This document shows positions 3,932 to 51,773 of a stretch of 64,000 bases of DNA, piece after piece. Position 1 is the stretch's first letter; every line of letters starts with the position of its first letter. The stretch is from contig OZ253580.1 in assembly GCA_965263035.1 (NCBI GenBank), positions 5,920,001-5,984,000 of the forward strand, read 5' to 3'. A program made the position numbers and the translations under genes. This DNA comes from Acidobacteriota bacterium (GTDB lineage Bacteria > Acidobacteriota > UBA6911 > RPQK01 > JAJDTT01). The notes beneath the pieces are model-generated. The model ran no database searches and was not told the origin of the DNA. It was given only the letters and a program-made list of their open reading frames with translations.

Positions 3932-4184
3932 ATGGGTACGTTACCGTCCGCGTTTGGTGACGTGCGTACGCCGGCTTATTTGAGCTGGGAGCCTGCGCGG
4001 CAGAAATTGATCTACTGCGAAAGCGGTAGAATCGGTCCATATTTCCCCGATTTCTCGGCGAATAGAACAACTATGCACCTCCAAATCGAGAAAATCTGGC
4101 CTCGATTCCCCACTTTCTCGCTACGATCATTCCTACCGCGCAGACTCCTGGAAGACCGTCCGGCCAGTTACCCAGACCATGCCT

Positions 4185-5793: not shown

Positions 5794-5803
5794 GGCGCAC
5801 CTC

Positions 5804-7231
5804 CTAAAACCACCAGCCGATGCCCAGGTTCCACCGGTTGCGGGCCCGGACGATCCGGCTGGCGTTCTTCATGAAGTTGTAGTCCAGCTTCAGGACCACG
5901 TCCGGGTGGGGAAAGTAGGAAAGACCCAGAACGTGGGCCGAACGGTCGAACTGGCTCAGCGGGAAGAACCCTTCAGCCATTCTGTGCTGGGTGTCGAAGT
6001 TCTCGTAGCGAAAAAAGCCGACCACGTCATGGCTGGAACCGGACGGCACCAGGCTACTGGAGCCTTCCAGGTAGAATCCTCGCATTCCTCGGGCAATGTT
6101 GGGGTTGATTCCGGCGCTGCGGCGAATCGAAGCGTTGACTTCAGCCGCCTGGTCCAGATGGGTCAGGGCATACTGCCCCCGAGCCTCGAAGCGATCGAAC
6201 CGATACCTGCCGTCGAACTCGAAGATCCGCAATCGGGCGTCCAGATCCCTGAAATGGAATCCGGTCTCTCCGGTCCAGAAGCTGGTGCCCAGATTCAGTC
6301 CCGGAAGCGGCCCGTATTCGACTCGCCCGACCCAGGCCAGATTGCGAGCGTTCTCCAGAAATGATTTTTGCCTTCCCTCCCGGAAACCCTCCTCTGCGGA
6401 AAAGAGGGAACCGTCCACCGAACTCATGACATAGGTCTTGTAGGAGAAACCTCCGCCCAAGTCTCCCACGAAGCCTCCGCCGCCGGCGAACCAGGTCGTG
6501 GGAAGGATTACCTCATCCACGAAGGGACGTTCCACCCCGTGAAACGCAGTCGGCTCATGCCTTTCGTTGATGATTCCCACCGGGGTCAGCAAAATCCCGG
6601 CCCGAAAGTTGAATCGCGGGTCGATGAGGAAGTCCAGGTAGGCCTGTTCCAACTCCAACTCACCGGTGGGAGCGCCGCCCTCGATCAAACCGTGCTCCAA
6701 TTCCAGTTCCGACCAGAACCGGATCCGATCCCCGAACCTGTGGCCCAGGTTCAGAACGAAACGGTGAAAGTCGAAAGTGGTCGGGTTCAAACCGTCGTGG
6801 TTGACGTGCATCTCCATGTACCCGGACATGGGTATGCTGCCGCCGAACAGTCCCGCCGACGCGTCGGGGCCGTCAGGCGCCGCGACCACCTCGGCGACCA
6901 CCAACGCTTCCACCTCCGGGACCGCTTCTTCTTCCGGAGCCGGATCCTCGACCCGGGACGCCTGCCGGCGAATCGTCTTCAACTCATCGGCCAGAGACTC
7001 CAGCTGCCTTTTCACATCCTCGCCGACAGTGCCTTCCAGCGCGGCGGCCAAGAGTCCGATCAACCGCTCCAGATTGGACTCCACCCGGTCGAGACGGTCT
7101 ACAAGGGACTCGTCCTGGGGTGTGGCGATCACCGGCACGGTCCCGATCCCGACCAGGACGACCGCCAGTAGCAGTATCGGGAGGTTAGGGCCAAGGCGCG
7201 CCGCCGTGCCGACGAGTGTGAAATATTCCAT
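5804..7231 (-). CDS. Outer-membrane porin-like beta-barrel with an N-terminal coiled coil
   Basis: DFHRFVL, SELELEH, ELEQAYLDF and NERHEPT motifs; C-terminal LGIGWWF beta-signal. Start moved to ATG 7231 because the upstream stretch is promoter/operator. Confidence 0.8.
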   Translation of the reverse strand: MEYFTLVGTAARLGPNLPILLLAVVLVGIGTVPVIATPQDESLVDRLDRVESNLERLIGLLAAALEGTVGEDVKRQLESLADELKTIRRQASRVEDPAPEEEAVPEVEALVVAEVVAAPDGPDASAGLFGGSIPMSGYMEMHVNHDGLNPTTFDFHRFVLNLGHRFGDRIRFWSELELEHGLIEGGAPTGELELEQAYLDFLIDPRFNFRAGILLTPVGIINERHEPTAFHGVERPFVDEVILPTTWFAGGGGFVGDLGGGFSYKTYVMSSVDGSLFSAEEGFREGRQKSFLENARNLAWVGRVEYGPLPGLNLGTSFWTGETGFHFRDLDARLRIFEFDGRYRFDRFEARGQYALTHLDQAAEVNASIRRSAGINPNIARGMRGFYLEGSSSLVPSGSSHDVVGFFRYENFDTQHRMAEGFFPLSQFDRSAHVLGLSYFPHPDVVLKLDYNFMKNASRIVRARNRWNLGIGWWF

Positions 7232-7370: not shown

Positions 7371-9797
7371 TCAGGTGCCGGGTGCGGTTTCGATAACGAT
7401 CTGCTCGTAGACGCGACGGGCATGATCGTAGGCCCTGCGTGCCGCGTCCTTCTCCGAGTCGCGGATCCTGGCGCGCTTCATCTTCCAGCATCGATCCACG
7501 GCCTCACGACACCATTCGGCGCTTCTGCGTGAAGCCCGGACCGGCTTGTCGCCCACCAGGACGAAGATGGGATTGGTGTGGGAACTGGCAAGGACCCGCA
7601 GAGCGACCCAACTGGACCGGGTGAGCTCATGATCGAACTCGATCTCGTTCCAGTCGCCGTCAGCCGTCACGACTCGAGTCTCCACGGACTGACCGTTGAC
7701 CACCAGTTCCACGGGAACCTCCCGGCTGGTTCCCCTGCGGGCCCGCTCCAGATGCCAATAGGGAGGCTGAGTCAAGCCTCGGGACGCAATCACCGCGCCC
7801 ACGTCATCCTGTCGTTCCGAAAGGTAGGCAGCGACTCGGGCTTGGACCTTCACCCTGCCGGGAGCGGCCAGTCGGAGCTCACTTCCCTGGGTACCCAGTT
7901 CCCGGTCCTGCACCTGAAAGCCGATGATGTGGGATCGGCCGTCGGAGACGTAGCTCCTACCGGCGCGGATCTGCTCCATGTAGCGGTCGAAGTCCAACTC
8001 GCCTTCCAGCTTCGCGTAGCTGCGAGCCATCCCGATGCGGTCATCGTAGATGCACGGGAAATCCGTCTCTCCACTGATGCGGGTTCGGAACCCGGAGTTC
8101 AGGGCGTGGTACCAGATGTTCAACTCCCAGGGCAACGGTGTGTCTCCGGCGGAGATGAAGTCCACCGCGTCGTGGGTCACCGACACGATGTATTCATTGG
8201 CGCCGATTCCGTCGAATTTGGCCATCACGTAGTTGGGCAGCTCGGTGGTGAACTCCATCGGCTCCAGGCCCCAACCCGAGTGGGAGTAGCCGACGACGGC
8301 TCCCTGACCTTGACCCCACTGGAGGACGGGAAGGGTCCAACTGGGCCATTGCTGAACCCGGGTCGTCCCGGGGTAGTCGTCTTCCCGGAGCCGCAGAAGA
8401 CAGAGATGGCCCGCGTGCGAGGAGGGAAAGCCGGAAACCTCCACGTCATAACGCATCAGGTTGTTCCGGGTGGAGAGGGAGTGCACCCGACCCTCGAAGT
8501 TCTGTTTCTGGTGATACCAGCACGGTCCCCAGGTCAGGACGCAGGCGATGTTCAAGTCTTCACCCAGCGCCTGGCGCCACATGTGAGACGGCTGGACGCC
8601 CTCGTCGGGACTCTCGTAATGGCTGCACCCGGCCGCATGGACATGGTGGTCGGCGCTGTACCAGCCGAGAGCCGCCAAATGCGTCCAGCGCTCCAGCCGG
8701 AAACCGATCTCCTGCTCTTCGACACCGGGACGAACGCGGACTCTTCTGTTCTGAACCAGGTATTCGGGACCGCGGCTGACGCGAATTTCGTACTCGCCCG
8801 CCGGCAGGAACACATGCTCCCCGTCAGCACGGTAGACCTGCGGGTGGAAGTAGAAATCAGGATATTCTCCGCGGGAGAGCCGCCGCGACGGCAGTGGATA
8901 GACCCCCACCAGACGGCCGACGGGGGACGGTGTGTCGCCGATGCCCCGGGTCCGGTCCCACGGACGCCTCAGCGCCCGCGCCAACCGGTAGTCGGAGGGC
9001 AACCGATTCAACTCCGGTTCTTCGATCACCCGTTCGATGCCGTCGGTGATGACGAACGAGGCCATGGTGGGAGTACCGTCGTGATCCTTGACCCGGAGCC
9101 GGACCCGGACCGCAGGACGGCAGTCGAAGAGGACGTCCACGCTGTTGCGAAAGCCCAGATCCTGGGTCCCCTGCCCCACGTGGAATCCGATCTTGGCTTC
9201 GCGCAACCCTTGTTCCCGAGTGTAGATCTGGATGATGGCGTACTCCAGCTTCAGACCCGAAAGATGGCTCCGCAGGGGGCGGCGGCCATAGACGGCCAGC
9301 TCCAGGAAACGATTGGCCACGTCTCCGTCCGAGAGCACGTTCACCGGTTTGACCCGTTTCGCCCCCGTCGACTTGTGAAACAGCGGCAGCGCGTTGGGGC
9401 TTTCGGCGTGGAGCTGGGCGTTGACGGCGGCGTCGTTTTCTATCTTGACCATAAAGCTGGTCCACCCGCCCTGGACCAGAAGCGGAGCCGCCGGGCCGCG
9501 CAACACTTTGACCCGAGCCTCCGGGTTGATGGACACCATGGCCAGGCAATACGGATCCAAGAGGGTCTGGATTTCACGAACCACCGAGTCGGAAGGAGCC
9601 TGATCCCTCAAGGCCTGGATCCGCTCCCAGTCCCGGCTGTTCAAACGGCTGCCCAGGAACGAGAGAGCTTCCCCCAAGCGGACGACCTGCGCCACCAGAG
9701 GCTGGGGCTCGACGTCCTGAACCAGTGGAAGCGCCTGTCCCGGGAGAAATGACGGAAACGATGCAGAGAGGACGATCAACGCCAGGGCCTGTTTCAC
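7371..9797 (-). CDS. CehA/McbA family (PHP-like) exported metallohydrolase
   Basis: WYSADHHVHAAGCSHY, SSHAGHL, SGETDFPC and C-terminal SSHTNPI; signal peptide; AAGGAGG RBS. Confidence 0.85.
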   Translation of the reverse strand: MKQALALIVLSASFPSFLPGQALPLVQDVEPQPLVAQVVRLGEALSFLGSRLNSRDWERIQALRDQAPSDSVVREIQTLLDPYCLAMVSINPEARVKVLRGPAAPLLVQGGWTSFMVKIENDAAVNAQLHAESPNALPLFHKSTGAKRVKPVNVLSDGDVANRFLELAVYGRRPLRSHLSGLKLEYAIIQIYTREQGLREAKIGFHVGQGTQDLGFRNSVDVLFDCRPAVRVRLRVKDHDGTPTMASFVITDGIERVIEEPELNRLPSDYRLARALRRPWDRTRGIGDTPSPVGRLVGVYPLPSRRLSRGEYPDFYFHPQVYRADGEHVFLPAGEYEIRVSRGPEYLVQNRRVRVRPGVEEQEIGFRLERWTHLAALGWYSADHHVHAAGCSHYESPDEGVQPSHMWRQALGEDLNIACVLTWGPCWYHQKQNFEGRVHSLSTRNNLMRYDVEVSGFPSSHAGHLCLLRLREDDYPGTTRVQQWPSWTLPVLQWGQGQGAVVGYSHSGWGLEPMEFTTELPNYVMAKFDGIGANEYIVSVTHDAVDFISAGDTPLPWELNIWYHALNSGFRTRISGETDFPCIYDDRIGMARSYAKLEGELDFDRYMEQIRAGRSYVSDGRSHIIGFQVQDRELGTQGSELRLAAPGRVKVQARVAAYLSERQDDVGAVIASRGLTQPPYWHLERARRGTSREVPVELVVNGQSVETRVVTADGDWNEIEFDHELTRSSWVALRVLASSHTNPIFVLVGDKPVRASRRSAEWCREAVDRCWKMKRARIRDSEKDAARRAYDHARRVYEQIVIETAPGT

Positions 9798-39410: not shown

Positions 39411-39601
39411 GAGATTTCTCCGGATCCGCTCCGAGGCCGGCTCACCTGTCCCACCATGACCTGACGAAGCCAAGCCCTCACCCTCTGGTGCAGAGAGAGT
39501 ACGCCCGCACCGATCTGGGCCGCAAGCCCGTGGGGGGTGGCGTCACGCCCACGACGGGTGGGACAATCGGGACCGTCGCCGGCATGGGGGATATCGTGAA
39601 C

Positions 39602-40441
39602 ATGCGTGTGGGAATGAATCTGCTCCTCTGGACGACCGAAGTCGGACCGTCCCATCGAAAACTGCTGAAGCAGATTCGCGACTGGGGCTTCGACGGCGTC
39701 GAGATCCCCATTTTTTCGCCCCATCCTCAGCGCGCACGGGATCTCGGCCTGCTTCTGGACGATCTGGGACTGGAGCGCACGGCCGTCACCGTCGTTCCGC
39801 CGGACGCCAATCCCATTCACCCGGATCCATCCGTCCGGACCAAGGCCCTGGAGTACTTGAAGTCGGTGGTGGAGGCCTGCCATCTCGCCGGAATCCGTCT
39901 CCTCGCAGGCCCGCTCCACTCCCCCGTCGGTCTCCTGGCGGGCCGCAGCCGCACCCAGGAGGAATGGCGATGGGCTCTGGAAATCCTGCAACAGACGGCG
40001 GATCTGGCCCGGTCCGCGCGGATCACGCTGGCTCTGGAATTCCTGAACCGGTTCGAATCCTATTTCCTGAACTGCGCCAAGGACACCGTCGAGTTCACGG
40101 CTCAGGCCGATCGGCCCAATCTGGGGATTCTCTACGACACCTACCACGCCCATCTGGAGGAGAAGAACGTCTCCACGGCGATTCGGTCCTGTGCGGGCGC
40201 CCTTCGCCACGTCCACATCAGCGAGAACGACCGGGCGACCCCCGGCGAGGGTCAGGTCCGCTGGCAGGAGACCTTCGACACTCTCAAGGACGTCCGGTAT
40301 GCGGACTGGCTGGTCATCGAGGCCTTCGGGCAGGCGATGCCGGAACTGGCCGCCGCCACCTGCATCTGGCGGCGCATGTTCCCGTCAGAAGAGCATCTGG
40401 CGCGAAACGGACTGGAATGGATCCGCTCCAACTGGGATTGA
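39602..40441 (+). CDS. Sugar phosphate isomerase/epimerase (ketose 3-epimerase-like TIM barrel)
   Basis: GFDGVEIP, EFLNRFE, YDTYH, HVHISENDR, IEAF. Confidence 0.9.
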   Translation: MRVGMNLLLWTTEVGPSHRKLLKQIRDWGFDGVEIPIFSPHPQRARDLGLLLDDLGLERTAVTVVPPDANPIHPDPSVRTKALEYLKSVVEACHLAGIRLLAGPLHSPVGLLAGRSRTQEEWRWALEILQQTADLARSARITLALEFLNRFESYFLNCAKDTVEFTAQADRPNLGILYDTYHAHLEEKNVSTAIRSCAGALRHVHISENDRATPGEGQVRWQETFDTLKDVRYADWLVIEAFGQAMPELAAATCIWRRMFPSEEHLARNGLEWIRSNWD

Positions 40442-40457
40442 TTTCCGCCTGAAAAAC

Positions 40458-40542
40458 GTAGGGGCACCCCTTGTGGATGCCCTCTTTCGTCCGAACCTCG
40501 GTTGCCAGCCCGGACGAGGGCGACCACGAGGGTCGCCCCTAT
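40458..40542. repeat. REPIN-like doublet of inverted GTAG-type REPs
   Basis: GTAG-GGGCACCCCTTGTGGATGCCC ... GGGCGACCACGAGGGTCGCCC-CTAT. Confidence 0.8.
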
Positions 40543-40589
40543 GAGACGAAGAACCAGCATCTGCCGGCAGTGGTGTTTCGGAGAGCTCT

Positions 40590-40689
40590 CCCTATCGATC
40601 CCGGAACCGCTCGGCCGTGTCCTGCGGCTCGTAATCCCAGGTCCCGCCGAGCGTTGTCCAGAGACCGATAGTTCCACTTGTTGTCGGAG
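40590..40689 (-). pseudogene. Orphan 3' end of the NAD-dependent epimerase gene (copy of 42485-42583)
   Basis: Aligned by eye: 5 substitutions plus a 1-bp insertion; the ~55 bp next to 40689 are identical. Confidence 0.9.
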
Positions 40690-40698
40690 GACCGAATG

Positions 40699-40994
40699 AG
40701 GGGACAGTCTATTTTTCCGTGCTTGCTGGATTTGGTGGCGGGGACGGCCTGTCCCTTGGTCGGGATCGGTTCAGCCTCACCGGATGTGCGCGGCTCGAAT
40801 AGTCTCAGACGGCTCACGTCCGGATCTCCAGGAGGCTGAAAAAGGGGACAGTCTATTCTTCCGGGACGAGTTGCACCGGATGTCGGGAGAGCTGCCCGGG
40901 CCTTCCAAACCCTGCGGCGCGGCCCGCGCTCAGCCGTCAGGCACCGGCTCTTGACCCATTCAGGAGGGGAAAAAGGGGACGGTCTATTTTTCCG
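40699..40994 (+). repeat. Three spaced direct repeats AGGGGAC(A/G)GTCTATT(T/C)TTCCG
   Basis: Copies start at 40699, 40843 and 40974; copies 2 and 3 share about 40 bp. Confidence 0.85.
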
Positions 40995-41194
40995 GGACGG
41001 GAGGCACAGGGCGGACCACAAAGGTGTCGGCTCCTTCGTCTGCAAAGACAACTGAGGTGGCGACTTGGTCACGTTTCCTCGGATGCTTCCGGGAACGCGA
41101 GATTTGCTGATTTTCTTGAGTTTCCTTCGCCTTTCTCAGATCTGAATCGTTGTTGTCATCAGGGGTGCGAACCGATTCACCGAGGACAATGGCC

Positions 41195-42130
41195 ATGGCC
41201 CGAGGCGCGCGACACAAAAGCACAGAGGCCGCTTTCTATCACCTCACCAATCGAGTCGCCGGTCGGGCCGATTGGTTCCCCTTTGAAGACCGCCAAGCCC
41301 GGAGCAAACTCCTGGACATGATGTTGTTCTACGTCAATGCCTACCGGTGTCGTTTGGCCGCTTTCCAGATCATGGGTAATCACTTCCACTTCATCGTCCA
41401 TTTTGAGAAACCTCGCCCCTTGTCCCGCGAGGAATTGATGGAGAGCGCCCACAAGCTTTATGGACGAAAGGCAGAGGTGAAAACCGACGGTTGGACCGAC
41501 GCCCAGTGGGAGGCTTTCAACCAGCGTCTATTTGACGTGTCGAAACTGATGGCGAACTTGGACGGGCTCTATGCCCGGTGGATCAACCGTAAGTTCGTAC
41601 GACGAGGCCATTTTTGGAGTGATCGCTTCAAGAACCCGGAACTATTGGGAAGCGAAGCCGTCCAGGACGCCCTCCTCTACGTGGAACTCAATGCCGTCCG
41701 GGCCGGACTGGTCAAACGACCCGAGCAGTGGAAGTGGGGCTCGGCCCGTTGGAGACTCACCGGCAAGGATCAAGATCTGATACCACTGGAGGAACTGTTC
41801 CCCTCGGATCCCGGAACCGACGTGTACAGCAGTTACCGGGCTCGCTTGTACTATCGAGGAGCCGTCCCCACCCGGGAGAACCAGGCCGCGATCCCCCGGT
41901 GGATCCTCCATCAGGAGCAGCGACGTGGATTTACCCGTGCCGGAGCATTTCGCCGGCGTTTGCGATTTCTGACGGACGGATTGGCCGTCGGGCCGGCAGA
42001 GAAGGTGGCGCAACTGCTGGCGACGTATCGGCAGCAAGGTCGATATCGACGTCGCCAACACCCCATCCCTCAACTGGGCGGAGTGCTGTTTTCCCTGCGG
42101 GAGCAGCGCTCGAACGCCTTCGTCTCGTAG
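41195..42130 (+). CDS. Y1/HUH tyrosine transposase, RAYT-like (IS200/Y1_Tnp fold)
   Basis: MARGAR, YHLTNR, IMGNHFH (HUH), GHFWSDRFK, YVELNAVRAG (catalytic Tyr), WKWGS. Confidence 0.9.
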   Translation: MARGARHKSTEAAFYHLTNRVAGRADWFPFEDRQARSKLLDMMLFYVNAYRCRLAAFQIMGNHFHFIVHFEKPRPLSREELMESAHKLYGRKAEVKTDGWTDAQWEAFNQRLFDVSKLMANLDGLYARWINRKFVRRGHFWSDRFKNPELLGSEAVQDALLYVELNAVRAGLVKRPEQWKWGSARWRLTGKDQDLIPLEELFPSDPGTDVYSSYRARLYYRGAVPTRENQAAIPRWILHQEQRRGFTRAGAFRRRLRFLTDGLAVGPAEKVAQLLATYRQQGRYRRRQHPIPQLGGVLFSLREQRSNAFVS

Positions 42131-42389
42131 ACTCGCCTGATCTCCGACTGTCGATTCTGCCACTGTGGCACGGAACGACCCAGATCACTGGAACCGCCCA
42201 ATAGACTGAATTGTCCTCTTAGTGTGTGGAAAGTCCTCCGGACTTCCATCCATTTGCCATAGGTTCACTGCTCTGCTTCCGCAATCTGTTCTCGAGACTG
42301 TCCCTTTCTGTTTCTTTCTGTCCTTTCTGTCTCGGAATTCCGTCGAGACGCTCCATCCCGACCCTTCCGCGTGAAAAACCGTGAAAAAC

Positions 42390-42474
42390 GTAGGGGCACC
42401 CCTTGTGGGTGCCCTCTTTCGTCCGAACCTCAATTGCCAGCCCGGGCGAGGGCGACCACCAGGGGTGCCCCTGC
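42390..42474. repeat. Second REPIN-like doublet
   Basis: GTAG-GGGCACCCCTTGTGGGTGCCC ... GGGCGACCACCAGGGGTGCCC-CTGC; the spacer is nearly identical to that of the 40458 copy. Confidence 0.8.
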
Positions 42475-42486
42475 GAACGGTGTCCC

Positions 42487-43245
42487 CTAGCCGTCCCGGA
42501 ACCGTTCGGCCGTGTCCCGCGGCTCGTATCCCAGGTCCCGCCGAGCGTTGTCCAGAGACCGATAGTTCCACTTGTTGTCGGAGACCACGTAGTAAACCCC
42601 GAACTTCAGATCCTCGGGCGCGTCGATGCAGCGGCGGATCATCTGGGCGATGTCCGCGTGGCTGCACCAGACCGAGAAATCCCGAACCTCGTTGGGCCGG
42701 TCGTTCAAGTGGACACGGCCGATACGGAGGCAGATCATGGACAGGTCCCATTCGTCGGAGAAGAAGCGGGCCAACGTTTCACCGAACGCCTTGCTGCATC
42801 CGTAGAGGCCGTTGGGCCGAATCAGCGAGGTGTCCAGCACGTCCCAACCGGTCGCCTCCTCGTAACGTCCCTCGACCAGGGCATTGTAGGGCGCATGCTG
42901 CTCCCACTCGCTGACGGCGGCCCCGCTGCTGGCGAAGATGACCCTCTCGACACCCGCCGTCCGGGCCGCTTCGAACACGTTGTAGGTCCCGATGATGTTG
43001 TGCGGGAGCACGTCCTCCCAGGTGGGATCCCCCTGGGCCATGGCGGCCAGGTGGACGACGGTTTCCACTCCGTCGAAGGCGGGCCGGATGCCCTCCAGAT
43101 CGGCGATGTCCGCCTGCAGGCAGCGGAACCCCTCCACCGGGCGCCGGTTCAAGGCGCTCAGTTCGTACGAATCCCCCAGTTCCCGCCGGCAGACCTGCCC
43201 GATGAGTCCGCTCATCCCCGTGATCAACACTCTCTTTTTTCCCAT
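42487..43245 (-). CDS. NAD-dependent epimerase/dehydratase (uronate dehydrogenase-like)
   Basis: ITGMSGLIG, VHLAA, FASS, YGCSK, CLRIG. Confidence 0.9.
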   Translation of the reverse strand: MGKKRVLITGMSGLIGQVCRRELGDSYELSALNRRPVEGFRCLQADIADLEGIRPAFDGVETVVHLAAMAQGDPTWEDVLPHNIIGTYNVFEAARTAGVERVIFASSGAAVSEWEQHAPYNALVEGRYEEATGWDVLDTSLIRPNGLYGCSKAFGETLARFFSDEWDLSMICLRIGRVHLNDRPNEVRDFSVWCSHADIAQMIRRCIDAPEDLKFGVYYVVSDNKWNYRSLDNARRDLGYEPRDTAERFRDG

Positions 43246-43384
43246 GCCGCGATTCTACCGCAGGGCATCCCGACTCCGCTTTCCGGGTTTCCCCCGTCGG
43301 TTCTAATTTCCATATCCAGACTTTATGATGGGTTCTCGTTTCGACATTGGAGAAATCGGCATCCGGCAAATTAGGAGTGGAGAC

Positions 43385-44119
43385 ATGTTTCGAAACAAAA
43401 TTCTGGAGAGAATCAAAAGAGGCGAGAAGGCTCTGGGCCTGTTCATGTCGGACCCTTCCGAAGAACTGGTGGAAATGGCCGGGCGCATGGGGCTGGATTT
43501 CGTCGGATTCGACGGCCAACACTCGCCCCTCACCCCGGAGCGCGTCGGCACTTTGTGCACCATCGCGGACGGGTTCGACGTCACGCCCACCATGCGGGTC
43601 CCGGATGGGAACGAGAGCACGCTTCTGTCCTATCTGGACAGGGGAATCAGAGGCATCACCGTTCCCAACATCCAGACCCGGGAAGAAGCCGAACAACTGG
43701 TCAAATACACCTATTTCGCACCGCTGGGCCTGCGCAGCTCCACCAGCTACCGCATGGTCATGAACCAGGAGGGAAAGGACCGCAACACCCTCTTCCAGGA
43801 AGTCAACGCCAACCTGATGATCGTCCCCCAACTGGAGAGCGTGACTTCAATCCGGAATTTGGACGAGATCCTTCAGGTGGAGGGAATCGACTATTTCGGA
43901 GGCGGCCCCGAAGACATGGCCCAGTCCATGGGCATTCCGGGACGGCACGACGATCCCAGGGTGACCCGGATCTACCAGGAGATGGAGCAGAAAGTCCATG
44001 CCGCCGGAAAGTTCATGGCGGGAGACTACATAGAGTCGGTGAACGTCTTCTGGAACGTCAAGGGCGCGTTGGAGCAACTGCTTGAAAACCACGGCCGCCG
44101 CTCTCGCATGACCTGGTAG
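43385..44119 (+). CDS. HpcH/HpaI aldolase family protein
   Basis: FDGQHS, RVP, LDRG, QLES, GPEDMAQSMG. Confidence 0.85.
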   Translation: MFRNKILERIKRGEKALGLFMSDPSEELVEMAGRMGLDFVGFDGQHSPLTPERVGTLCTIADGFDVTPTMRVPDGNESTLLSYLDRGIRGITVPNIQTREEAEQLVKYTYFAPLGLRSSTSYRMVMNQEGKDRNTLFQEVNANLMIVPQLESVTSIRNLDEILQVEGIDYFGGGPEDMAQSMGIPGRHDDPRVTRIYQEMEQKVHAAGKFMAGDYIESVNVFWNVKGALEQLLENHGRRSRMTW

Positions 44120-44135
44120 TGAAGAGCCCCACCCC

Positions 44136-45089
44136 GTGAAGTTCGTCGTCAATCTGCCCATCGCCGGTCCTCTGGCGGCTCCCCGCAGTCTCTCGGCTCT
44201 CGCTCGAACCGCCGAGGCCCAGGGAGTCGACATCATCTCCTCCAGCGAGCGCCTGGTCCTGCCCCGCTCCGTCGAGACCCGCTACCCGTACGGCGCCACG
44301 GGCAAGTTTCCCGGCGGAACCGGCGGCCAGAAGAGCCTGGAGATGCTGATGACCCTGGCCTTTCTCTGCGGCCAGACCTCGCGGGTCCGCATCCTGACCT
44401 CGGTCCTGGTCCTGCCCTACCGGGATCCGATCCTGGCGGCCAAGATGCTGGCCACCCTGGACGTCCTCTCCCACGGCCGGCTCATCGTGGGCTGCGGCGT
44501 CGGCTGGATGCGGGAGGAGTTCGAAGCCCTGGGCCTGCCGGTCCGATTCGAGGACCGGGGCCGAGCCTCGGAAGAGTACCTGAGGGGCATGCAGGAACTC
44601 TGGTGTAGCGAGAACCCTGAGTTCAAAGGCAACCACGTCCGTTTTTCCGGGATCGAATTCCATCCCCAGCCGGTGCAGCGGCCTCATCCGCCCTTCTGGT
44701 TCGGCGGAGAGAGCACCGCGGCCCTCCGGCGCGTCGCCCGCTTCGGAGACGGATGGATGCCCATCGCCGGAAACCCGCGCCATCCGCTGGACAACGACGG
44801 GCTACTCGTCCGGGCGATTGAAAGACTGCGCCGAATGGTGGAGGCCGAAGGCCGGGATCCGGACAAGATCCACGTCCGGTTCGGCGGAGGATGGAACGAA
44901 TCCCCGCGCCGGGGCCCGGGAGGAGAGAGACTGCCCATGAGCGGCACGGTCCAGCAGGTGGCCGGAGACATCCGCCGCTATCAGGATCTGGGAGTCGACC
45001 ACATGGGAGTGGGCCTGCTGACCGATGACTTGTCCGAGAGTCTGGAACGGATCGAGCGCTTCATGACCAGTGTCGTGCCCTTGGTCTAG
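44136..45089 (+). CDS. LLM-class (F420/flavin-dependent) oxidoreductase
   Basis: YPY, TSVLVLPYRDP, LDVLSHGRL, GVGWMREEF, WFGGES, GDGW. Confidence 0.92.
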   Translation: MKFVVNLPIAGPLAAPRSLSALARTAEAQGVDIISSSERLVLPRSVETRYPYGATGKFPGGTGGQKSLEMLMTLAFLCGQTSRVRILTSVLVLPYRDPILAAKMLATLDVLSHGRLIVGCGVGWMREEFEALGLPVRFEDRGRASEEYLRGMQELWCSENPEFKGNHVRFSGIEFHPQPVQRPHPPFWFGGESTAALRRVARFGDGWMPIAGNPRHPLDNDGLLVRAIERLRRMVEAEGRDPDKIHVRFGGGWNESPRRGPGGERLPMSGTVQQVAGDIRRYQDLGVDHMGVGLLTDDLSESLERIERFMTSVVPLV

Positions 45090-45239
45090 GAGCTTGCGCC
45101 GTGGGAGATTTGTGGGACGAGTCGGGCGGTTGACCGTGGCTTCGACGAACCTTGCCGTCGGAAAACCTTCGGCCGGCAGGTCAGAGGAGCGCCCGTGGCT
45201 CCACAATCTCGAGGGAAAAACCGGTTTCCGCCAGCGATG

Positions 45240-45612
45240 ACATTGTCGAATGGTTCATCCAGTAACGATGGCTGGAAGAAGTCTGCTGTCCTCATTGCGG
45301 CTCCGTGAACGTCCAGAGCGGGGCCAAGCACAATTCCATGCCGTTTCGGTGCCGGGACTGCCGTCGGCGTTTCAACACCAAGCCCGGAACGCCCATGCAG
45401 TCTTCCAATCTGCGCTATCAGACGGGGCTCTACGCCAGCTATCTGCTCTCCACCAACCTGAAGAACCTATCCAGTATAAAGCCCGACAGAGAACTGGAGA
45501 TCCCCCAGACGTCAGCTTGGCATCTCGCCCAACGCATCCGCCGTGCCTGGAACCTGGATACAGAAGAGCCGTTTGAAAGGCCCGTCGAAGCCGACGAGAC
45601 TTACATGGGAAG
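45240..45612 (+). pseudogene. IS1595-family transposase remnant
   Basis: WF..*RW...CPHCGS...RCRDCRRRF zinc ribbon, SAWHLAQRIR and VEADETYMG; in-frame stop; truncated after the first catalytic Asp. Confidence 0.85.
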
Positions 45613-45622
45613 CTTGTGCGAT

Positions 45623-46855
45623 TCACAATCTCAGGAAGATCCTCTGCCGATACATCCACCAGCAGACCAGCCAGAACGTGAGCCCCACCGTCACCGACTC
45701 GAGGGCGGGCTCATTGGCGGCTCCCCAGAGTTGGAAGATGTTCTGCCCCAGGTGTGTCCGCAAGGTTGCTGCGGTCCAACTGGGTAGAAGCATGCTCATC
45801 GAGTAGATCGCTATGGAGTTGGTGCCCACCACCACCAGAGGGAAGGTCCAGCGACGGATCCTGGCCACGTCAATTAGAACGTAGAGTCCTCCCAGGATCA
45901 GGCAGCACCAGCCCGTCGAAAAGATTGCCCAGGAGGGTGTCCAGATCCGCTTGACAAGTGGACAGACACCCGTCCAATCGAGGATCAGTCCTACGGTCAG
46001 ACCAAGAATCCCCGCTCCCAGAAGTGTTCTGAGCTTGGTTTGGGCCGAGCGGTGCGAGCGCAGGAACCCGCCCACCATCAGGCCGAAAAGCATGGTGGCC
46101 AGGGAGGGAATGAAGTTGATGGTCTGATACCCTCCTCCGTTGTGGACGAACGGCTCCTGGCGTGGCAGCTGGTTCAGCAGCCAGCCGTCAACGGCATGAC
46201 CGACGTTGGCGTTCTTATGCCAGGCTGGAGACACTTCCGCCAGATGTCGCTGAGCCCACTCCGGTTGAACACCCACCTCAAGCGAGCCGCTCGGAAGCTC
46301 GACACCGGCTCCGGGATACAGGACGTACAACATCCACGTCAGGATCAGGACGAACACTGCCCCAAGGGACTGACTTCGAAGTCTTCGACGGCAGAACAAA
46401 AAGAGGAAAGTGTAGCCCAGCCCGATCTGCGTCAGGACATTCATCAGTGACCAACTGGTGCTGGAGAGCGAATCGGAAATCAGGAAGATGCCCAGAAGGA
46501 TGAGGACGGTGGATCTCCCGAGGGCGTGGCGCAGCATCTTGCCGTACGAGTGCCCCAGTCCGGATCGTTTGGCATAGGAGTAGGCCATCGACACTCCCAC
46601 CATGAACATGAAGGAGGGTTGGATCAGATCCCAGTAGCCACATCCGGTCCAGGGGACGTGGGAAAACTGGTAATGAACCGTCTGCCAGAAGGAAGAGTCT
46701 GGATTTGTTGCCAGATGATTCTCGGCCGTCTCCCTGAGACCGAAACCCTTGAAGGCGAGGGAGACCATGATCAGTCCACGATAGGCGTCAAGAGACAGCA
46801 ACCTCTGTTGCTGCCGGTTGCTTTTTGCGACCTCGGATTCACTGTGGGATCCCAC
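45623..46855 (-). CDS. HGSNAT/NagX-like (DUF5009) membrane acyltransferase
   Basis: RLLSLDAYRG, WDLIQPSFMFMVG, KRIWTPSW, GTNSI. Confidence 0.9.
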   Translation of the reverse strand: MGSHSESEVAKSNRQQQRLLSLDAYRGLIMVSLAFKGFGLRETAENHLATNPDSSFWQTVHYQFSHVPWTGCGYWDLIQPSFMFMVGVSMAYSYAKRSGLGHSYGKMLRHALGRSTVLILLGIFLISDSLSSTSWSLMNVLTQIGLGYTFLFLFCRRRLRSQSLGAVFVLILTWMLYVLYPGAGVELPSGSLEVGVQPEWAQRHLAEVSPAWHKNANVGHAVDGWLLNQLPRQEPFVHNGGGYQTINFIPSLATMLFGLMVGGFLRSHRSAQTKLRTLLGAGILGLTVGLILDWTGVCPLVKRIWTPSWAIFSTGWCCLILGGLYVLIDVARIRRWTFPLVVVGTNSIAIYSMSMLLPSWTAATLRTHLGQNIFQLWGAANEPALESVTVGLTFWLVCWWMYRQRIFLRL

Positions 46856-46994
46856 GAACGCCCTTCCGTTGAGTCGATATCAACAATCTACGATGATCAG
46901 CATGCTGGCACCGTTCACATGGTGATTCAACTGACCATAGATGGCCTTTCTGCTGCTCAGTATCCCGGTGTGGGGAGCCTTGCTATGCCATTAG

Positions 46995-47548
46995 CCCCAA
47001 TTTCTCATCACCGACACGAAAATCGGTTTTTTTAACCGCATTTCAGTGGTTTTCTTAGCCATATGAACTCAAGAGCTGTCCTGCCGACTCGAATGCGGTG
47101 ATGAAAACCGAAATCCGGCGATGTCCAGGGGCATTTGACTTCTCGCGGGCACTCGTGAGCGATGGTTCTCCCCCAAGAGCCGGCTCCAGCGCAGAGTCCG
47201 TCCCGCAGACTTCCAACTTGGCTTCTTCCCACCAGCGGGTTCGTGGTAACAGCGAAGCGGATGGGTTTGCACTCGGGCCAGAACCGTCCGCAACCATGCC
47301 GCGTACGGGTAGCTCTCGGAAAACGACAACCAGACCTTGCGCTTGGTGACCCGGACCTGAGCGCTGATCTTCTTGTACTCTGGCTCCGGACCCTCGAGGG
47401 GAGTCAACTCCAGCCGGGTCAGGGTGCTCTTGCCCGCCAGCGGCTTGCCCCGATCCGCCTCCAGGCGCCGGAACTCCCCCGTCAGGTCGTCCCGGTCACA
47501 CAGCACGGCCAGCAGCCGGTCCCGGCACAACTCGTCGTGGTCACACAG
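46995..47548 (-). pseudogene. IS1380-family remnant with an internal deletion
   Basis: DHDEL..D.LLAV...DRGKPLAGKSTL.RLE...YKKI is joined directly to the C-terminal AQVRVTKRKVWLSFSESYPY; possible right end TGAGAAATTGGGG near 46995. Confidence 0.7.
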
Positions 47549-47657
47549 AGAGAAGGTGACTGTCCCCTTCTCACTCTTGCGCACTCTTGCGCGCTTCCGG
47601 CGAAAAATCACACTAACCAATGTCGGGACGATCCAAACCATGAAGGGGGTACACGCC

Positions 47658-48227
47658 ATGAGAAGTCTGACCAGAAAGAATGGAGGATGGCTCAGGAAAA
47701 CCACGGTTACGGGGTTATTGCCATTGCTGTTTCTAGCGAGTTTTCCAGGTTGCACCGCGAAGCATATGCCAGACTGGTCCAAGGTGCAGGCCGTAGTCCC
47801 TGACACTAAGACCGAGGTACAGCTTCACGAAGAAGAGGCCCTGCCGGAGGACAACGAGAATATCGAGGGCCGATTTGATACGGCCACAGCTGATTCCTTG
47901 ACGTTGAAGTTCGAGGATGGGCGAACGGACACTTTCCAGAAACAGTATGTGCGCAAGGTGTCGACTCACCGTCCCATATGGAAGCGCTGGCCGGGATGGA
48001 TCACCCTAGTGGCGGCCTCTGTGGCAATGGGCATCGTGGCCACCTCTGAAGACATCGACGTGGCTCCATATGGGTTACTCTTGCCAGTAGGTCTGCCGAC
48101 GCTCCTTGCCTTTTACGGCTCATCGCCAACGGAAAGAGTTTACGAAGTCGCGCCCAAGCACACAGATCCCATGTGGTCGACAGGTCCGTCGGCAACCGAG
48201 GCTAAGAAGCCGACCAAGTCGAAGTAA
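47658..48227 (+). CDS. Hypothetical lipoprotein-like membrane protein
   Basis: Basic N-terminus, hydrophobic stretch ending FPG-C, two C-terminal hydrophobic segments; AAGGGGG RBS; less GC-biased codons. Confidence 0.65.
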   Translation: MRSLTRKNGGWLRKTTVTGLLPLLFLASFPGCTAKHMPDWSKVQAVVPDTKTEVQLHEEEALPEDNENIEGRFDTATADSLTLKFEDGRTDTFQKQYVRKVSTHRPIWKRWPGWITLVAASVAMGIVATSEDIDVAPYGLLLPVGLPTLLAFYGSSPTERVYEVAPKHTDPMWSTGPSATEAKKPTKSK

Positions 48228-48300
48228 CTGCGAATTGGGATGTCCTTGGGGGTCCGCCTACCTCCGTTAACTGAAATTAACGGCCGCACGGCCGCTCGGC

Positions 48301-48442
48301 CCAGCAGGTGGCCGGGGACATCCGCCGCTACCAGGATCTGGGAGTCGACCACCTGGGAATGGGTCTGTTGACGGATGACCTGTCCGAGAGTCCGGACCGA
48401 ATCGAGGGCTTCATGACCACCGTGGCGCCGCTGGTCCAGTGA
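48301..48442 (+). pseudogene. Orphan 3' end of the LLM oxidoreductase gene (copy of 44951-45089)
   Basis: 19 mismatches in 139 bp by manual count, frame intact (QQVAGDIRRYQDLGVDH...), with its own TGA. Confidence 0.9.
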
Positions 48443-48443
48443 A

Positions 48444-49664
48444 TCAGACCGACGCGACGGATTCCCGCCGGCAGATTCCGGCCAAGCGCCCTATCCCCTC
48501 CCGAATGACCTGGGGCGAATCGTAACCGAAACAGAGCCTGGCGCAATTGTGTCCCGAGTTACCCTCGGGCGACAGGCGTATGCCGGGAAAGATGAGAATG
48601 CCCTCGCGAAGCGCCTGGTCGGCAACCGCCTGCATGTCGACTCCGGGAGCCAACGTCAGCCAGATGAACAGGCCGCCGCGGGGACGGCTCCAGGTAGCTC
48701 CGGAGTCCGACGGCTCTCCGAACCCCTCCTCCAATCCCGCCAGCATGGCGTCCCGCTTGCGGCCAAGGATGCGGCTGGCGGACCGGATGTGCTCCTCCAG
48801 GTGGCTCACAGCGTAACGATGAATCGCCAACGCGGCCAACTGGCTCACTCCGCCTCCACTCTTGATGGCCGAGATCCGGTCCAGGAGCGGTGAGGGTCCG
48901 GCCAGGTAGCCGAGGCGGACTCCCGGGCCGATGATCTTGGAGAAGGAACCGACGTACACTACCACTCCCCCGGTATCGAGGGCGGCGATCGCCGGCACCG
49001 GATCGCCCTCGTAGCGAAGGTCCACGTAGCAATCGTCTTCCAGAACGGCGATCCCGTGCCGTTGGGCCGTTTCCAGCAGGTGTATTCGGCGTTCCAGGCT
49101 CATGACCCATCCCAGGGGATTCTGGAAGGTGGGAATCGTGTAGATGAGCTTGACCCGTTTCCCCTCGCCGGCCACGCTTCGGACCGCCCCTTCCAGGGCA
49201 TCGGGCAAGAACCCTTCCTGGTCGCACTCCACCCCGCGGATATCCGCACCGAATCGTCTCAGGATGCCCAGCGTCCCCGGGTAGGTGAACTCCTCGGTCA
49301 GGACCACCTCGCCCGGATTCACCAGCGCCTCGATGATCATGTAATTGGGCTGGCTGGACCCGTCGCCCAGGATGATGTCTTCGGCTGAAACCGAAAGACT
49401 TCGGTCCCGCGCCAATTTCGCCGCTATGTACTCGCGCAAGGGCGGATATCCCGAGGGATGGGGGTATTTGGCCAATTCCCGTCCTTCCTCTTCCAGACCC
49501 ACGCGAAGGCCCGCTGCCAACTCCGCCAAAGGCAGGGAGTCGGGATCGGGATAGGCCACACCGAAGTCGTAGGTTGCGCCGGGATGGGCCTGCCGCGGCC
49601 CCGGCTGTCGCGGCATGGAACGGGAAAAAACGTCGGCCTGGGCGAACAAGCTTCGTTTCGACAT
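48444..49664 (-). CDS. PLP-dependent aminotransferase class I/II (2-aminoadipate transaminase-like)
   Basis: YTIPTFQNP, EDDCY, GSFSKIIGPGVRLG, GGLFIW; AGGAGG before ATG 49664. Confidence 0.92.
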   Translation of the reverse strand: MSKRSLFAQADVFSRSMPRQPGPRQAHPGATYDFGVAYPDPDSLPLAELAAGLRVGLEEEGRELAKYPHPSGYPPLREYIAAKLARDRSLSVSAEDIILGDGSSQPNYMIIEALVNPGEVVLTEEFTYPGTLGILRRFGADIRGVECDQEGFLPDALEGAVRSVAGEGKRVKLIYTIPTFQNPLGWVMSLERRIHLLETAQRHGIAVLEDDCYVDLRYEGDPVPAIAALDTGGVVVYVGSFSKIIGPGVRLGYLAGPSPLLDRISAIKSGGGVSQLAALAIHRYAVSHLEEHIRSASRILGRKRDAMLAGLEEGFGEPSDSGATWSRPRGGLFIWLTLAPGVDMQAVADQALREGILIFPGIRLSPEGNSGHNCARLCFGYDSPQVIREGIGRLAGICRRESVASV

Positions 49665-49754
49665 GGTTGGATCCTCCTGGCGGCCGAGCCGAGGCCGCTT
49701 GCGGCGTCCGCTCCCCTCTGCCATTCTGCCAGACCATCGACGATTGCCGATGAA

Positions 49755-51773
49755 ATGTCCAGCAGCAGGTTGACAGTCCTCCCTTCCCTCCTGGCCTTGG
49801 GGACCCTCTGCTGCCAACCTTATCCTGGACCCGAAGCGTCCGATTCTTCGCCCTACCTGATCTACGAAGAGACCCCGCAAGGGGCCGAGATCGTCCTGGA
49901 TCCCGAGCGCCGGCCCCGCCGATTCCAGGAGGCCCCGGTGCTGGCCCGCCTGGTGGCTCAGGGCGAGCTTCCACCGGTGGAGGAGCGCCTCCCGGAGAAT
50001 CCGCTGGTCCTCCATCCCATCCACTCCATCGGCCGGTACGGAGGGACCCTGCGATCCGGCATGATCGCCAAGGGCCTCAACGAGGAGATGAACCGGATCA
50101 TGGGAATGGAGAAATTCCTCTTCTACGACGCGTCCGGGACTCGGATCGTTCCCAGCGTGGCGGAAGACTGGAACCAGAGCGAGGACGGCCGTTGGATCCG
50201 AATTCACCTGCGGCGGGGCATGCGATGGTCCGACGGCCATCCCTTCACCTCGGAGGACGTCCGTTTCTACTGGGAAGACCTGCACGCCCACCCCGACGTG
50301 TTTCCCTTTCCCGATCCGGACCTGGTGGTCAACGGCAAAGGGATGCGGTTCCAGGTCTTGGACCGCCACACGGTGCGCTTCGGGTTTGACGATCCCTATC
50401 CCCGGCTCCTGGAAGTCATGGCCTCCGCGTTCAGCCGGTTCGGGGGTGGCGTCTTCGGAGAGTTCCTCTGGGGACCCTACGCACCGGCACACCATCTCAA
50501 ACAATTCCATCCCCGCTACGTTTCTCGCCAGGACCTGGACCGTAAGGTGCGGGAATCGCAGCAGGAAGACTGGGTCGGACTGATGAAGCTCCGGAACAAC
50601 TATGCCTTGAACACGGAACTGCCGGTCCTGATGCCCTGGATGACGGTCCAGGCGCGGGACACGTCGGCGTGGGTCCTGGAGCGGAATCCCTATTTCTGGG
50701 AGGTGGACACCGAGGGCAATCAGCTTCCCTACATCGATCGCTGGGTTCTGACCAAGGCCACGGACCGGGAGGTCATCAACCTGCGGGCCATCGCCGGCGA
50801 ATACGATTTCTTGTACCGATATCTGGATCTTCAGAACCTGCCCGTCTTTTTGCAGCATGCCGAAGAGGAGAACTACAACGTCTATCTCAACCCGTCCCCG
50901 TCGGGGATGCTCTTCGGCTGCTACTTCAATCTGGGGTGGGAGGGAGATCCCGAGATCTCCAGATTGATTCAGGATGCAAACTTCCGCCGTGCCCTTTCCC
51001 TGGGTCTCCGCCGCTCCCAATTCAGTGACGCTTTTTACTTCTCCTTGGCCACCCCCAGCGCCCCCGGACCCAGCCCGGCACATCCCGAGCACCCGGGTGA
51101 GCGCTACCGGACTCTCTGGTCCACCTACGATCCGGACCGGGCCAATGTCATGCTGGACGACCTGGGACTGGAACGGCGGGACGAGGAGGGCTACCGGATG
51201 CGAAGCGACGGGCGCGGGCGGCTCCGAATCGAGATTCCGGCGCCCTCCGATCGCATGGAGGTCCTCAAATTCCAGATGTTGGAACAACAGCTCGAAGACC
51301 TGGGAATCGCCGTGGACGTTCCCATCCTGGGACGAACCCTCTGGTGGGAGGAGATGCGGGCCAACCGCGCGCAAATCACCTGCTGGACCCACCCGACCCA
51401 ATCCATCTGGGGCAGCCAGGCCCTGTATGTCCTTCCCGTCAGCCGGATGTCTCCCATCGGTCCTCTCTTCGGCCTCTGGTTCTCCAGCAACGGAAGACTG
51501 GGGGAAAAACCCACCGACCCGCAGATTCTCCGGGCCCAGGAGCTCTATCGCCTCGGCCGAACCCGGACCGCTCGGGAAAGGACCCGGATCGGGCGGGAGA
51601 TCTGGGGGATCGCCATCCGTGAGCAGTGGATGATGAGCACCGTGGGACGGGCGCCCAGTTCGGTGCGCATCTCCGACCGGCGGTTGGGCAACGTCCCAGC
51701 CGGGCTCTGTACCCAAGACGATTGCCGCACTCCTTCCACGGGCCGCCTGGAGACCCTGTATTGGAAGCAGTAA
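49755..51773 (+). CDS. ABC transporter substrate-binding protein, family 5
   Basis: LPPVEERLP, GRYGG, WSDGHPFT, RNPYFW.VD.EGNQLPYID; lipoprotein-like leader. Confidence 0.92.
   Translation: MSSSRLTVLPSLLALGTLCCQPYPGPEASDSSPYLIYEETPQGAEIVLDPERRPRRFQEAPVLARLVAQGELPPVEERLPENPLVLHPIHSIGRYGGTLRSGMIAKGLNEEMNRIMGMEKFLFYDASGTRIVPSVAEDWNQSEDGRWIRIHLRRGMRWSDGHPFTSEDVRFYWEDLHAHPDVFPFPDPDLVVNGKGMRFQVLDRHTVRFGFDDPYPRLLEVMASAFSRFGGGVFGEFLWGPYAPAHHLKQFHPRYVSRQDLDRKVRESQQEDWVGLMKLRNNYALNTELPVLMPWMTVQARDTSAWVLERNPYFWEVDTEGNQLPYIDRWVLTKATDREVINLRAIAGEYDFLYRYLDLQNLPVFLQHAEEENYNVYLNPSPSGMLFGCYFNLGWEGDPEISRLIQDANFRRALSLGLRRSQFSDAFYFSLATPSAPGPSPAHPEHPGERYRTLWSTYDPDRANVMLDDLGLERRDEEGYRMRSDGRGRLRIEIPAPSDRMEVLKFQMLEQQLEDLGIAVDVPILGRTLWWEEMRANRAQITCWTHPTQSIWGSQALYVLPVSRMSPIGPLFGLWFSSNGRLGEKPTDPQILRAQELYRLGRTRTARERTRIGREIWGIAIREQWMMSTVGRAPSSVRISDRRLGNVPAGLCTQDDCRTPSTGRLETLYWKQ

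Follow-up and report, generated by a model that had tools for sequence, protein, structure and literature searches.

Transposons mobilised by HUH enzymes of the Y1 type, which move as single strands, are the textbook case of insertion without target duplication. Integrase-borne islands and prophages enter the 3' ends of genes and provide a replacement end, as in tRNA genes and in icd of E. coli; they use a site-specific recombinase and one fixed target, a copy of which travels with the element. Here we describe a locus found in a stretch of 64,000 nucleotides (nt) from an Acidobacteriota bacterium (GenBank assembly GCA_965263035.1, contig OZ253580.1, positions 5,920,001 to 5,984,000). This whole stretch is called the window below and positions are counted from its first letter. 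The locus contains an element encoding a Y1/HUH transposase, located between two copies of its target DNA, and a second insert located between an intact gene end and an orphan copy of that end.

A further class of events, 'insertion with long target duplication', has been on record since 2000 with no mechanism assigned. It was first described by Nobusato et al. 2000, as cited in Furuta et al. 2010 (PMC2853133). The text of Furuta et al. describes direct repeats of 46-423 bp around the insert, which align to a single copy in the insert-free genome and some of which overlap gene 3' ends (PMC2853133). The cargo is composed of restriction-modification (RM) genes 'with no other mobile elements', and double-strand breakage by RM enzymes was proposed (PMC2853133). 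Among HUH-endonuclease elements, de novo insertions of Replitron-1 from Chlamydomonas are reported to 'induce variable-length target-site duplications', with variable read-through at the right end (Craig 2023, PMC10288648). The REP-associated tyrosine transposases (RAYTs) are domesticated relatives of the IS200/IS605-family Y1 enzymes. A preprint describes RAYTs as typically single-copy per genome (bioRxiv preprint 10.1101/119735).

Results

A Y1 element between two copies of its target

The host genome, G000, is a single 6.2-Mb contig. It was compared with eight congeneric genomes, G001-G008. In the window, the Y1 element (40690-42381, forward strand, 1,692 nt) splits a pair of convergent genes. 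The left member of the pair encodes a xylose-isomerase-like TIM-barrel protein (39488-40441, forward strand; Pfam AP_endonuc_2, E 8e-40). The right member is an intact NAD-dependent epimerase/dehydrogenase gene (42487-43245, reverse strand; Pfam Epimerase), whose best NCBIfam match is Azf-like, below the cut-off of that model. The outer target copy, on the left of the element (40450-40689), starts with a REPIN-like palindromic repeat (40450-40540), after which come a spacer of 49 nt and an orphan epimerase 3' end (40590-40689). The inner copy, on the right (42382-42583), contains a second REPIN-like repeat (42382-42472), 92% identical to the first, and the 97 nt that form the functional end of the epimerase gene. 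The whole repeated block therefore measures 240 nt on the left and 202 nt on the right, with a 37-nt indel. It is because the duplication takes in the REPIN-like repeat that the sequence between the copies is limited to the 1,692 nt given above. The REPIN-like unit itself has more than 20 dispersed copies in the genome.

Within the epimerase ends, 56 nt are 100% identical (40634-40689 and 42528-42583). The remaining 44 nt of the orphan show 89% identity, with a 1-nt indel, to the intact 3' end (42485-42583), and the orphan is frameshifted by a 1-nt insertion. Thanks to the duplicate copy, the interrupted genes stay whole: the epimerase gene is completed by the inner copy, and the outer copy is the orphan.

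The left site is empty in G004 and G008. Both genomes have a single epimerase end, with neither the element nor the orphan; at the left border, the target is thus single-copy in insert-free genomes. In G008, the stop codons of the isomerase and epimerase genes overlap within the palindrome CTAG. This tight stop-to-stop contact between convergent neighbours resembles the contact seen at the orphans, in agreement with a preliminary description of the locus, which had regarded the orphans as the displaced original gene ends. The G004 junction (L014:2697-2830) contains, at the CTAG position where the G008 stops overlap, a 134-nt insert with 22-nt inverted repeats. It has GCTAGCC on either side and resembles a miniature element.

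Other alleles are observed at the same junction. In G001, the orthologous isomerase/epimerase junction also contains the element, but here it is the isomerase end that is duplicated (136 nt, 97% identical). G005 has a 54-nt epimerase orphan at this junction. A 458-nt tandem repeat (99.3%) is also present in G005 within the isomerase gene, beside the Y1 hotspot (L015, oriented 2478-2935 vs 2977-3434). In a contig from metagenome run X2 (depth about 5), position 40467 is joined to 42333 with 2 extra letters, so that the orphan and the Y1 element are skipped. This contig keeps the 49 nt preceding the inner REPIN-like repeat and represents a third allele type at the left junction. Finally, the orphan in G000 carries the same G000/G006-specific states as the intact G000 copy. 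Such shared states indicate that the left duplication is young or was homogenised in the lineage.

Flank duplications recur across the element family

To count recurrences, the 2.5-kb left flank of every copy of the element was compared by BLAST with its right flank. In G000-G005, a direct duplication was counted if it reached at least 80 nt and lay within 800 nt on both sides. Three of the four G000 copies have a flank duplication (240, 205 and 235 nt). The count is 12 of 45 copies for G000-G005 and 6 of 18 for G006/G007, giving a total of 18 of 63 copies in eight genomes, with duplications of 86-258 nt. By the same procedure, 5 of 400 random G000 sites showed direct repeats of such size across a 1-kb insert. 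An enrichment of flanking gene-end duplications at homologous Y1 transposases had been set beforehand as a test, and these figures bear it out. The 18 duplicated copies are not independent. They correspond to 7 loci, and all 63 copies form about 14 groups by flank similarity.

Of the 45 classified copies in G000-G005, 30 are located between convergent genes. The duplicated stretch always includes the junction region of the converging genes and covers the 3' end of one or both. In the 17 measured cases, the span between the duplicate copies is 1,364-2,024 nt; the first end motif of the element is at most 34 nt from the left copy in 13 cases, and the last end motif at most 34 nt from the right copy in 10. 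What is duplicated is the DNA of the local target, which is different at each of the 7 loci. This does not agree with the 'homology-targeted' insertion proposed in the preliminary description, nor do the empty alleles of a second locus, which hold the target once.

This second locus is found at 1.83 Mb in G000, where about 205 nt of the right gene are duplicated, with the two copies around the element. G005, G003 and G001 are without the element at this place and have one copy of the 205-nt target. At a third G000 locus, at 0.80 Mb, 232 nt of the left gene are duplicated. Polarisation of the differences between its two copies with outgroups gave 5 derived states in the attached copy and 4 in the orphan. 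The duplicate copies in G000 share G000-specific states at two loci. In G004 L039, a 129-nt duplication takes in two abutting stops, with 55 nt from gene A and 74 nt from gene B; neither gene is truncated, and one orphan is found on each side of the element. Two-sided orphans are expected from a target duplication, not from a circle that carries a flank. Altogether, duplicated target DNA repeatedly encloses members of this element family, and the empty alleles have that target as a single copy.

The element and its transposase

The transposase gene (41195-42130, forward strand) encodes 311 amino acids from a conserved start; the open reading frame (ORF) is open from 41150. The protein matches Pfam Y1_Tnp (PF01797) with 36.2 bits against a cut-off of 23, and a genome scan for Y1_Tnp also recovers it, at 34.1 bits with neighbours in frame. 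With the NCBIfam model REP_Tyr_transpos (equivalog NF047646), it scores 52.9 bits, below the cut-off of 80. Residues N62, H63, H65, Y162, E164, L165, N166 and R169-V173 are invariant across 9 sequences down to 54% identity, and the tyrosine motif, Y-x-E-L-N-x-x-R-A-G-L-V, is invariant in 9 homologues. From knowledge of the family, we take the invariant His and Tyr residues to be those of HUH catalysis. The C-terminal half of the protein, outside the roughly 120-position Pfam domain, is also conserved. A total of 552 homologues were found at E <= 1e-10, some of which are labelled 'REP element-mobilizing transposase RayT' in their sources.

G000 has three more copies of the transposase gene, at about 90% identity. 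In the six genomes counted directly, there are 4 copies of the element in G000 and 6-11 in each of G001-G005. Two Y1 copies (L059, L060) with about 82% DNA identity to the window copy were also found in G023, a 3.4-Mb genome from another family of the same order. The other genes of G023 barely align, and the high Y1 identity suggests horizontal spread of the element. G000 has two further, unrelated genes with a Y1_Tnp domain (3478135-3478365, forward strand; 2482924-2483100, reverse strand). These are candidate movers of the REPIN-like repeat at 40450-40540 or of the palindromic motif family described below.

The element ends carry inverted GGGGACAGTC motifs (also written AAGGGACAGTC ends), frequently in short arrays. 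Aligned copies have AAGGGGACAGTCT(A/G)TTTTTCC at the left end and GAGACTGTCCCTTTC at the right. The window element has three left-hand motif copies (40694-40735, 40838-40879 and 40969-41010). The motif positions are 40701, 40845 and 40976 on the forward strand and, inverted, 42296 on the reverse strand. The orphan breakpoint, 40689/40690, is 12 nt ahead of the first motif copy. The minimal element was set by the closest pair, G002 L051 and L052, which are 99.2% identical over 1,369 nt. In the genome, AGGGGACAGTC has 61 occurrences, compared with about 4 expected, and the motif is also found alone about 60-100 times. In a crude stem count, at least 5 contiguous pairs were present in 25% of 102 motif copies, compared with 11% in shuffles, and one of the four window copies folds convincingly (-4.2 kcal/mol). 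It is therefore termed a motif here, rather than a proven hairpin.

A palindromic variant of the motif, GAGAAGGGGACAGTCACCTTCTC, is clustered in three regions of G000 outside the window (2290565-2310780, 4263594-4271189 and 5548270-5558916), with 6-10 copies per cluster at spacings of about 0.2-5 kb. One copy is present in the window, at 47558. The stem varies in step between copies (GAGAAGG/CCTTCTC vs GAAAA/TTTTC).

An older insert at the right border

The right-hand insert (45090-48290) splits a second convergent pair. It begins after an intact gene for an F420-dependent LLM-class oxidoreductase (44136-45089, forward strand; Pfam Bac_luciferase; TIGR03619 above its cut-off) and is followed by an orphan LLM 3' end (48291-48442, forward strand). 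The right member of the pair is a class I/II aminotransferase gene (48444-49820, upper end approximate; reverse strand; Aminotran_1_2). Positions 48291-48439 align without gaps to the LLM 3' end at 44941-45089, with 85% identity. The orphan is an open 50-codon LLM C-terminus that ends with TGA at 48440-48442, 1 nt from the aminotransferase stop codon (48444-46). The repeat alignments recover both orphan ends of the locus as they had been described beforehand, including this close spacing of the stops, and they show the left duplication to exceed the extent given there.

The LLM orphan is widespread in the genus. A full-length orphan stands beside the aminotransferase stop in G001, G006 and G007 (the last with two copies), and a partial one in G003, G004, G005 and G008; none was detected in G002, so that 7 of the 8 relatives have a whole or partial orphan. 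Derived characters are common to all the orphans. When a tree was built from the 149-nt stretch, the nine intact LLM ends grouped as a single clade (100/99), with the five full-length orphans outside it on longer branches. Since the orphan is genus-wide and the intact ends are one clade, the right event predates the genus radiation. The second G007 orphan copy (L018:15885-16058) is found in an enlarged right-hand insert of about 14 kb. G007 also has a second, partial acyltransferase copy (L018:18660-19226, 97.5% identical to 8633-9199).

In G000, the insert starts with a dispersed-repeat/insertion sequence (IS) remnant (45090-45600) that is specific to this genome, the 510 nt at 45090-45599 being a G000-specific addition. 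It is followed by the gene of an acyltransferase-3/NagX-like membrane protein (45623-46855, reverse strand), present in 8 of 8 relatives, fragments of a DDE (IS1380-type) element (46991-47542), one copy of the GACTGTCCCC hairpin motif (47558) and a lipoprotein-like ORF (about 47640-48227, forward strand). The acyltransferase gene directly follows the LLM gene in 7 of the 8 relatives; in G008, both genes are at the ends of different contigs. Two truncated repeat copies were distinguished in the insert. The one at 45248-45600 is without a Pfam match and about 70% identical to around a dozen copies in the genome. The other, at 46991-47542, shows 83-89% identity to about 17-20 copies and a partial DDE_Tnp_1_4 match below cut-off. 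Both are missing at this place from most relatives.

A tblastn search for a Y1 remnant in the right-hand insert (E <= 10) found nothing meaningful in any of the nine genomes. In the relatives, Pfam identified no recombinase in the right-hand cargo, in which immunoglobulin-like/peptidase, hybrid histidine kinase and helix-turn-helix proteins were found. Mobile DNA in the insert is limited to IS fragments in G000, and no mobile element is seen in G001. Copies of the GGTGACTGTCCCCTTCTC motif, of a related type, occur in the right insert of 6 of 9 genomes; motifs of this type are also scattered over the genome. In the window inserts, Pfam detected no integrase family, as the preliminary description had stated for the locus. 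By analogy with the left border, the right border may be an old insertion that duplicated a long stretch of its target, in which Y1 may or may not have had a role.

In the sister genus g2, the homologues of the oxidoreductase, epimerase, LLM, aminotransferase and acyltransferase genes are apart, on different contigs, and the acyltransferase gene is not beside the LLM gene. The acyltransferase gene shows 84% nucleotide and 83% amino acid identity to its sister-genus homologue (L010, G009). The neighbouring genes show 68-75% identity and are located elsewhere there. These values suggest either a more recent transfer of the acyltransferase gene between genera or a very strong constraint.

Neighbouring genes

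The gene identities given in the preliminary description were all recovered by domain searches (Epimerase, HpcH_HpaI, Bac_luciferase, Y1_Tnp and Aminotran_1_2). Between the two inserts are the epimerase gene, an HpcH/HpaI-type aldolase gene (43325-44119, forward strand; HpcH_HpaI domain) and the LLM gene. This trio is syntenic and 90-96% identical in 8 of 8 relatives, in which the isomerase flank is 86-92% and the aminotransferase flank 86-90% identical. With respect to G006/G007, the values are 93-96% for the trio, 92% for the left flank and 89-90% for the right flank. From these comparisons, the trio appears to be an ordinary vertically inherited three-gene block, in which nothing marks import. 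On the far left, a GFO/IDH/MocA oxidoreductase gene precedes the isomerase gene on the reverse strand.

Discussion

Origin of the two borders

We propose that the locus results from two separate insertions of different age, at convergent gene junctions and with long target duplication, the left one being associated with Y1. We assign a probability of about 0.6 to this reading. That the duplication was made at insertion is inferred, the enzymology being unproven. Two separate insertions, each with a regenerated gene end, had been mentioned as a second option in the preliminary description, and it is this option that is upheld. A common age of both borders is not supported: the LLM orphan is genus-wide and ancient, whereas G000-specific states are found in the left duplication, and the left site is empty in two species. 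Its suggestion of HUH involvement is retained for the left border, where a Y1 element is bracketed by the duplication; it is not supported at the right border.

Several observations weigh against this reading. IS200/IS605 enzymes are known to act on single strands and to make no target duplication, and their elements have no terminal inverted repeats. Within the family studied here, 45 of the 63 copies are without flank duplication, including G002 L052, the youngest-looking copy (99.2% identical to L051); the long duplication is therefore not obligatory. Among distant homologues (43-58% identity), flank duplication was found in 0 of 19 testable loci (2 more loci had flanks of insufficient length), and in 0 of the 2 copies of G023. 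Some flank repeats, of up to 1.4 kb, are beyond the range of 86-258 nt. In G006 L108, 1,402-nt direct repeats (97.4%) are found on either side of the Y1 gene. G007 L063 has a 1.2-kb tandem repeat (oriented 3796-4965 vs 5011-6137), the unit of which is the right end of the element plus about 0.9 kb of the neighbouring gene. Such a wide spread of lengths does not resemble a fixed staggered cut. In about half of the cases, one duplication boundary is the stop/stop junction, which would be unexpected under random placement unless orphans erode. At one locus, the boundaries differ between species. Moreover, the Y1 genes cluster by genome although the roughly 14 flank groups are largely common to the species. 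Insertion events are therefore not cleanly countable or datable, and concerted evolution or repeated re-seeding is indicated by this pattern. The 54-nt epimerase end that is attached in G005 has diverged further than the orphan of that genome. Lastly, no Y1 remnant is seen at the right border, and the proposed search for an empty allele in relatives, successful at the left border (G004 and G008), found none at the right border among 30 relatives.

Some of these points would fit a duplication made after insertion. The element would insert without duplication; later, the element and its flank would be duplicated, by one-ended read-through by Y1 or in tandem, and one element copy would be lost. 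Tandem arrays of the end motif, some of them with a few target bases, agree with such a course, as do two complete elements in tandem in G007 L066 and the tandem repeat of right end and flank in G007 L063. A boundary at the gene junction, which is frequent, and the lack of duplication at G002 L052 are also in its favour, and Replitron-1, another HUH element, is reported to have read-through 'fuzzy' right ends (PMC10288648). We nonetheless consider this explanation unlikely. Two or three steps are needed at each of 7 loci, the scheme fails to give one orphan per side as seen in G004 L039, G005 L022 and G005 L024, and the boundaries of the L063 repeat fall within the element, not at its end. An import from another strain appears less probable still. 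Either a circle would have integrated by a single crossover (Campbell type), or homology on one side would have been combined with an illegitimate join on the other, leaving the resident end as the orphan. Populations are indeed polymorphic for the element, with empty alleles in G004, G008 and run X2. The attached epimerase end of G005 looks as if brought from elsewhere, and the two isomerase ends of G001 show three linked differences, each corresponding to alleles in other species. However, illegitimate joins are expected at random, and the observed ones are at most 34 nt from the end motif in 13 of 17 cases on the left and 10 of 17 on the right. In addition, the G000-specific states common to duplicate copies at two loci argue against import, and the two-sided orphans of G004 L039 do not fit it. 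We therefore favour target duplication over both alternatives, in view of the two-sided orphans and of the junctions close to the element ends.

The preliminary description had preferred a single 7.6-kb donor segment (40690-48300) that took the place of about 2.4 kb of the resident trio by way of two non-homologous junctions. The orphan ends of the two outer trio genes, which face outward on both sides, would agree with this idea. It has now become very improbable: the trio is syntenic in all relatives, with no greater divergence than in its flanks; both the right orphan and the acyltransferase gene beside LLM are genus-wide while the left orphan is G000-specific; and two species that are empty on the left have the right orphan. 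Besides, the left structure is accounted for by an element that shows it at 6 other loci. We give least credit of all to an assembly artefact, in the form of a two-strain chimera or a mis-resolved repeat. Logan contigs of runs X15 and X19 show 0 differences over an 8.3-kb stretch and bridge 45089/45090 and 48290/48291; the source sample may be among these runs, and they are no independent proof. At 40689/40690 the contigs give no bridge, since the unitigs end 30 nt into the 56-nt exact repeat, and this junction rests on the assembly itself. Short-read contigs cannot phase such a repeat, and the de Bruijn graph also permits an empty locus plus a 1.9-kb circle. Against an artefact stand the single 6.2-Mb contig, the equal X15 unitig depth across the region (32-34), the agreement with the X15 and X19 contigs and the analogous structures in 7 other independently assembled genomes.

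A possible course of events

Under our proposal of insertion with target duplication, insertion would open the two target strands about 90-330 nt apart. The interval would then be copied on either side by fill-in, and the resulting target-site duplication would be long and variable. Selection would retain only those insertions whose duplicated interval spans the stop codons, both genes being kept intact, and the non-functional orphans would erode afterwards. Such erosion would explain the many copies without detectable duplication, the boundaries placed exactly at the junction, where only one of two orphans would be left, and the differences between species at one locus. A perfect empty site, as in G008, would be regained if the copies recombined with each other. 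The right insert would correspond to an older event, before the genus radiation, in which the 149-nt LLM end was duplicated; it would now hold the acyltransferase gene and variable cargo.

More tentatively, and well short of even odds, the Y1/HUH family itself may make variable target duplications of about 90-330 bp, possibly longer, and may have acted in trans on motif-bounded DNA to place the acyltransferase island beside LLM. If true, this would be a transposition mode not described for IS200/IS605-type enzymes. Duplication of the stop-codon region would make insertion into overlapping convergent gene ends harmless and reversible, and the enzyme missing from the unexplained class of insertions with long target duplication would be supplied. 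The element family as observed also shows a route by which mobile DNA can get into gene-dense genomes, through overlapping gene tails and with neither gene destroyed. For annotation, short orphan gene ends beside convergent neighbours may be read as insertion footprints, rather than as gene replacement or chimeric assembly.

Comparison with known systems

The Y1_Tnp domain, the HUH histidines and the catalytic tyrosine motif predicted from the sequence are shared with IS200/IS605 members and with RAYTs. The gene is also flanked, like RAYT genes, by inverted copies of a short motif that is dispersed in the genome. Unlike IS200/IS605 elements, the element has inverted AAGGGACAGTC ends and flank duplications of 86-258 nt in 18 of 63 copies. 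Unlike RAYTs, it is present in 4-11 copies per genome, and its score is below the NCBIfam RAYT cut-off. Judged on these features, the protein is a Y1/HUH transposase, and the element is neither a typical IS200/IS605 member nor a typical RAYT. With integrase islands, the locus has the outcome in common: the gene is intact but its end has been substituted, and the displaced end is left as an orphan beyond the insert. It differs from them by the lack of an integrase and by 7 loci that each have their own local duplicate. Replitron-1 is eukaryotic and has a Rep-class HUH protein and direct terminal repeats; one reported duplication size is 2 bp (PMC10288648), and the element is not tied to gene ends.

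The class described by Furuta et al. shows the closest correspondence in structure: direct repeats longer than 30 bp (240/202 nt on the left, 149 nt on the right), a target that is single-copy in insert-free genomes at the left border and at a second locus, and, for the right-hand insert, no mobility gene. The left insert departs from this class in that it is a transposase-bearing element at convergent junctions, which gives a candidate enzyme. A full-text literature search, covering sources outside subscription journals and supplements, returned no report linking a Y1/IS200-like or RAYT-like element to long flank duplications or regenerated gene ends. The insertion class is already known; its association with a Y1 transposase was not encountered in the literature covered. 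This element family is found at about 14 recurrent loci in eight genomes, with a target duplication at more than a quarter of its copies, and the link makes the question of mechanism testable with one protein and a 1.4-kb element.

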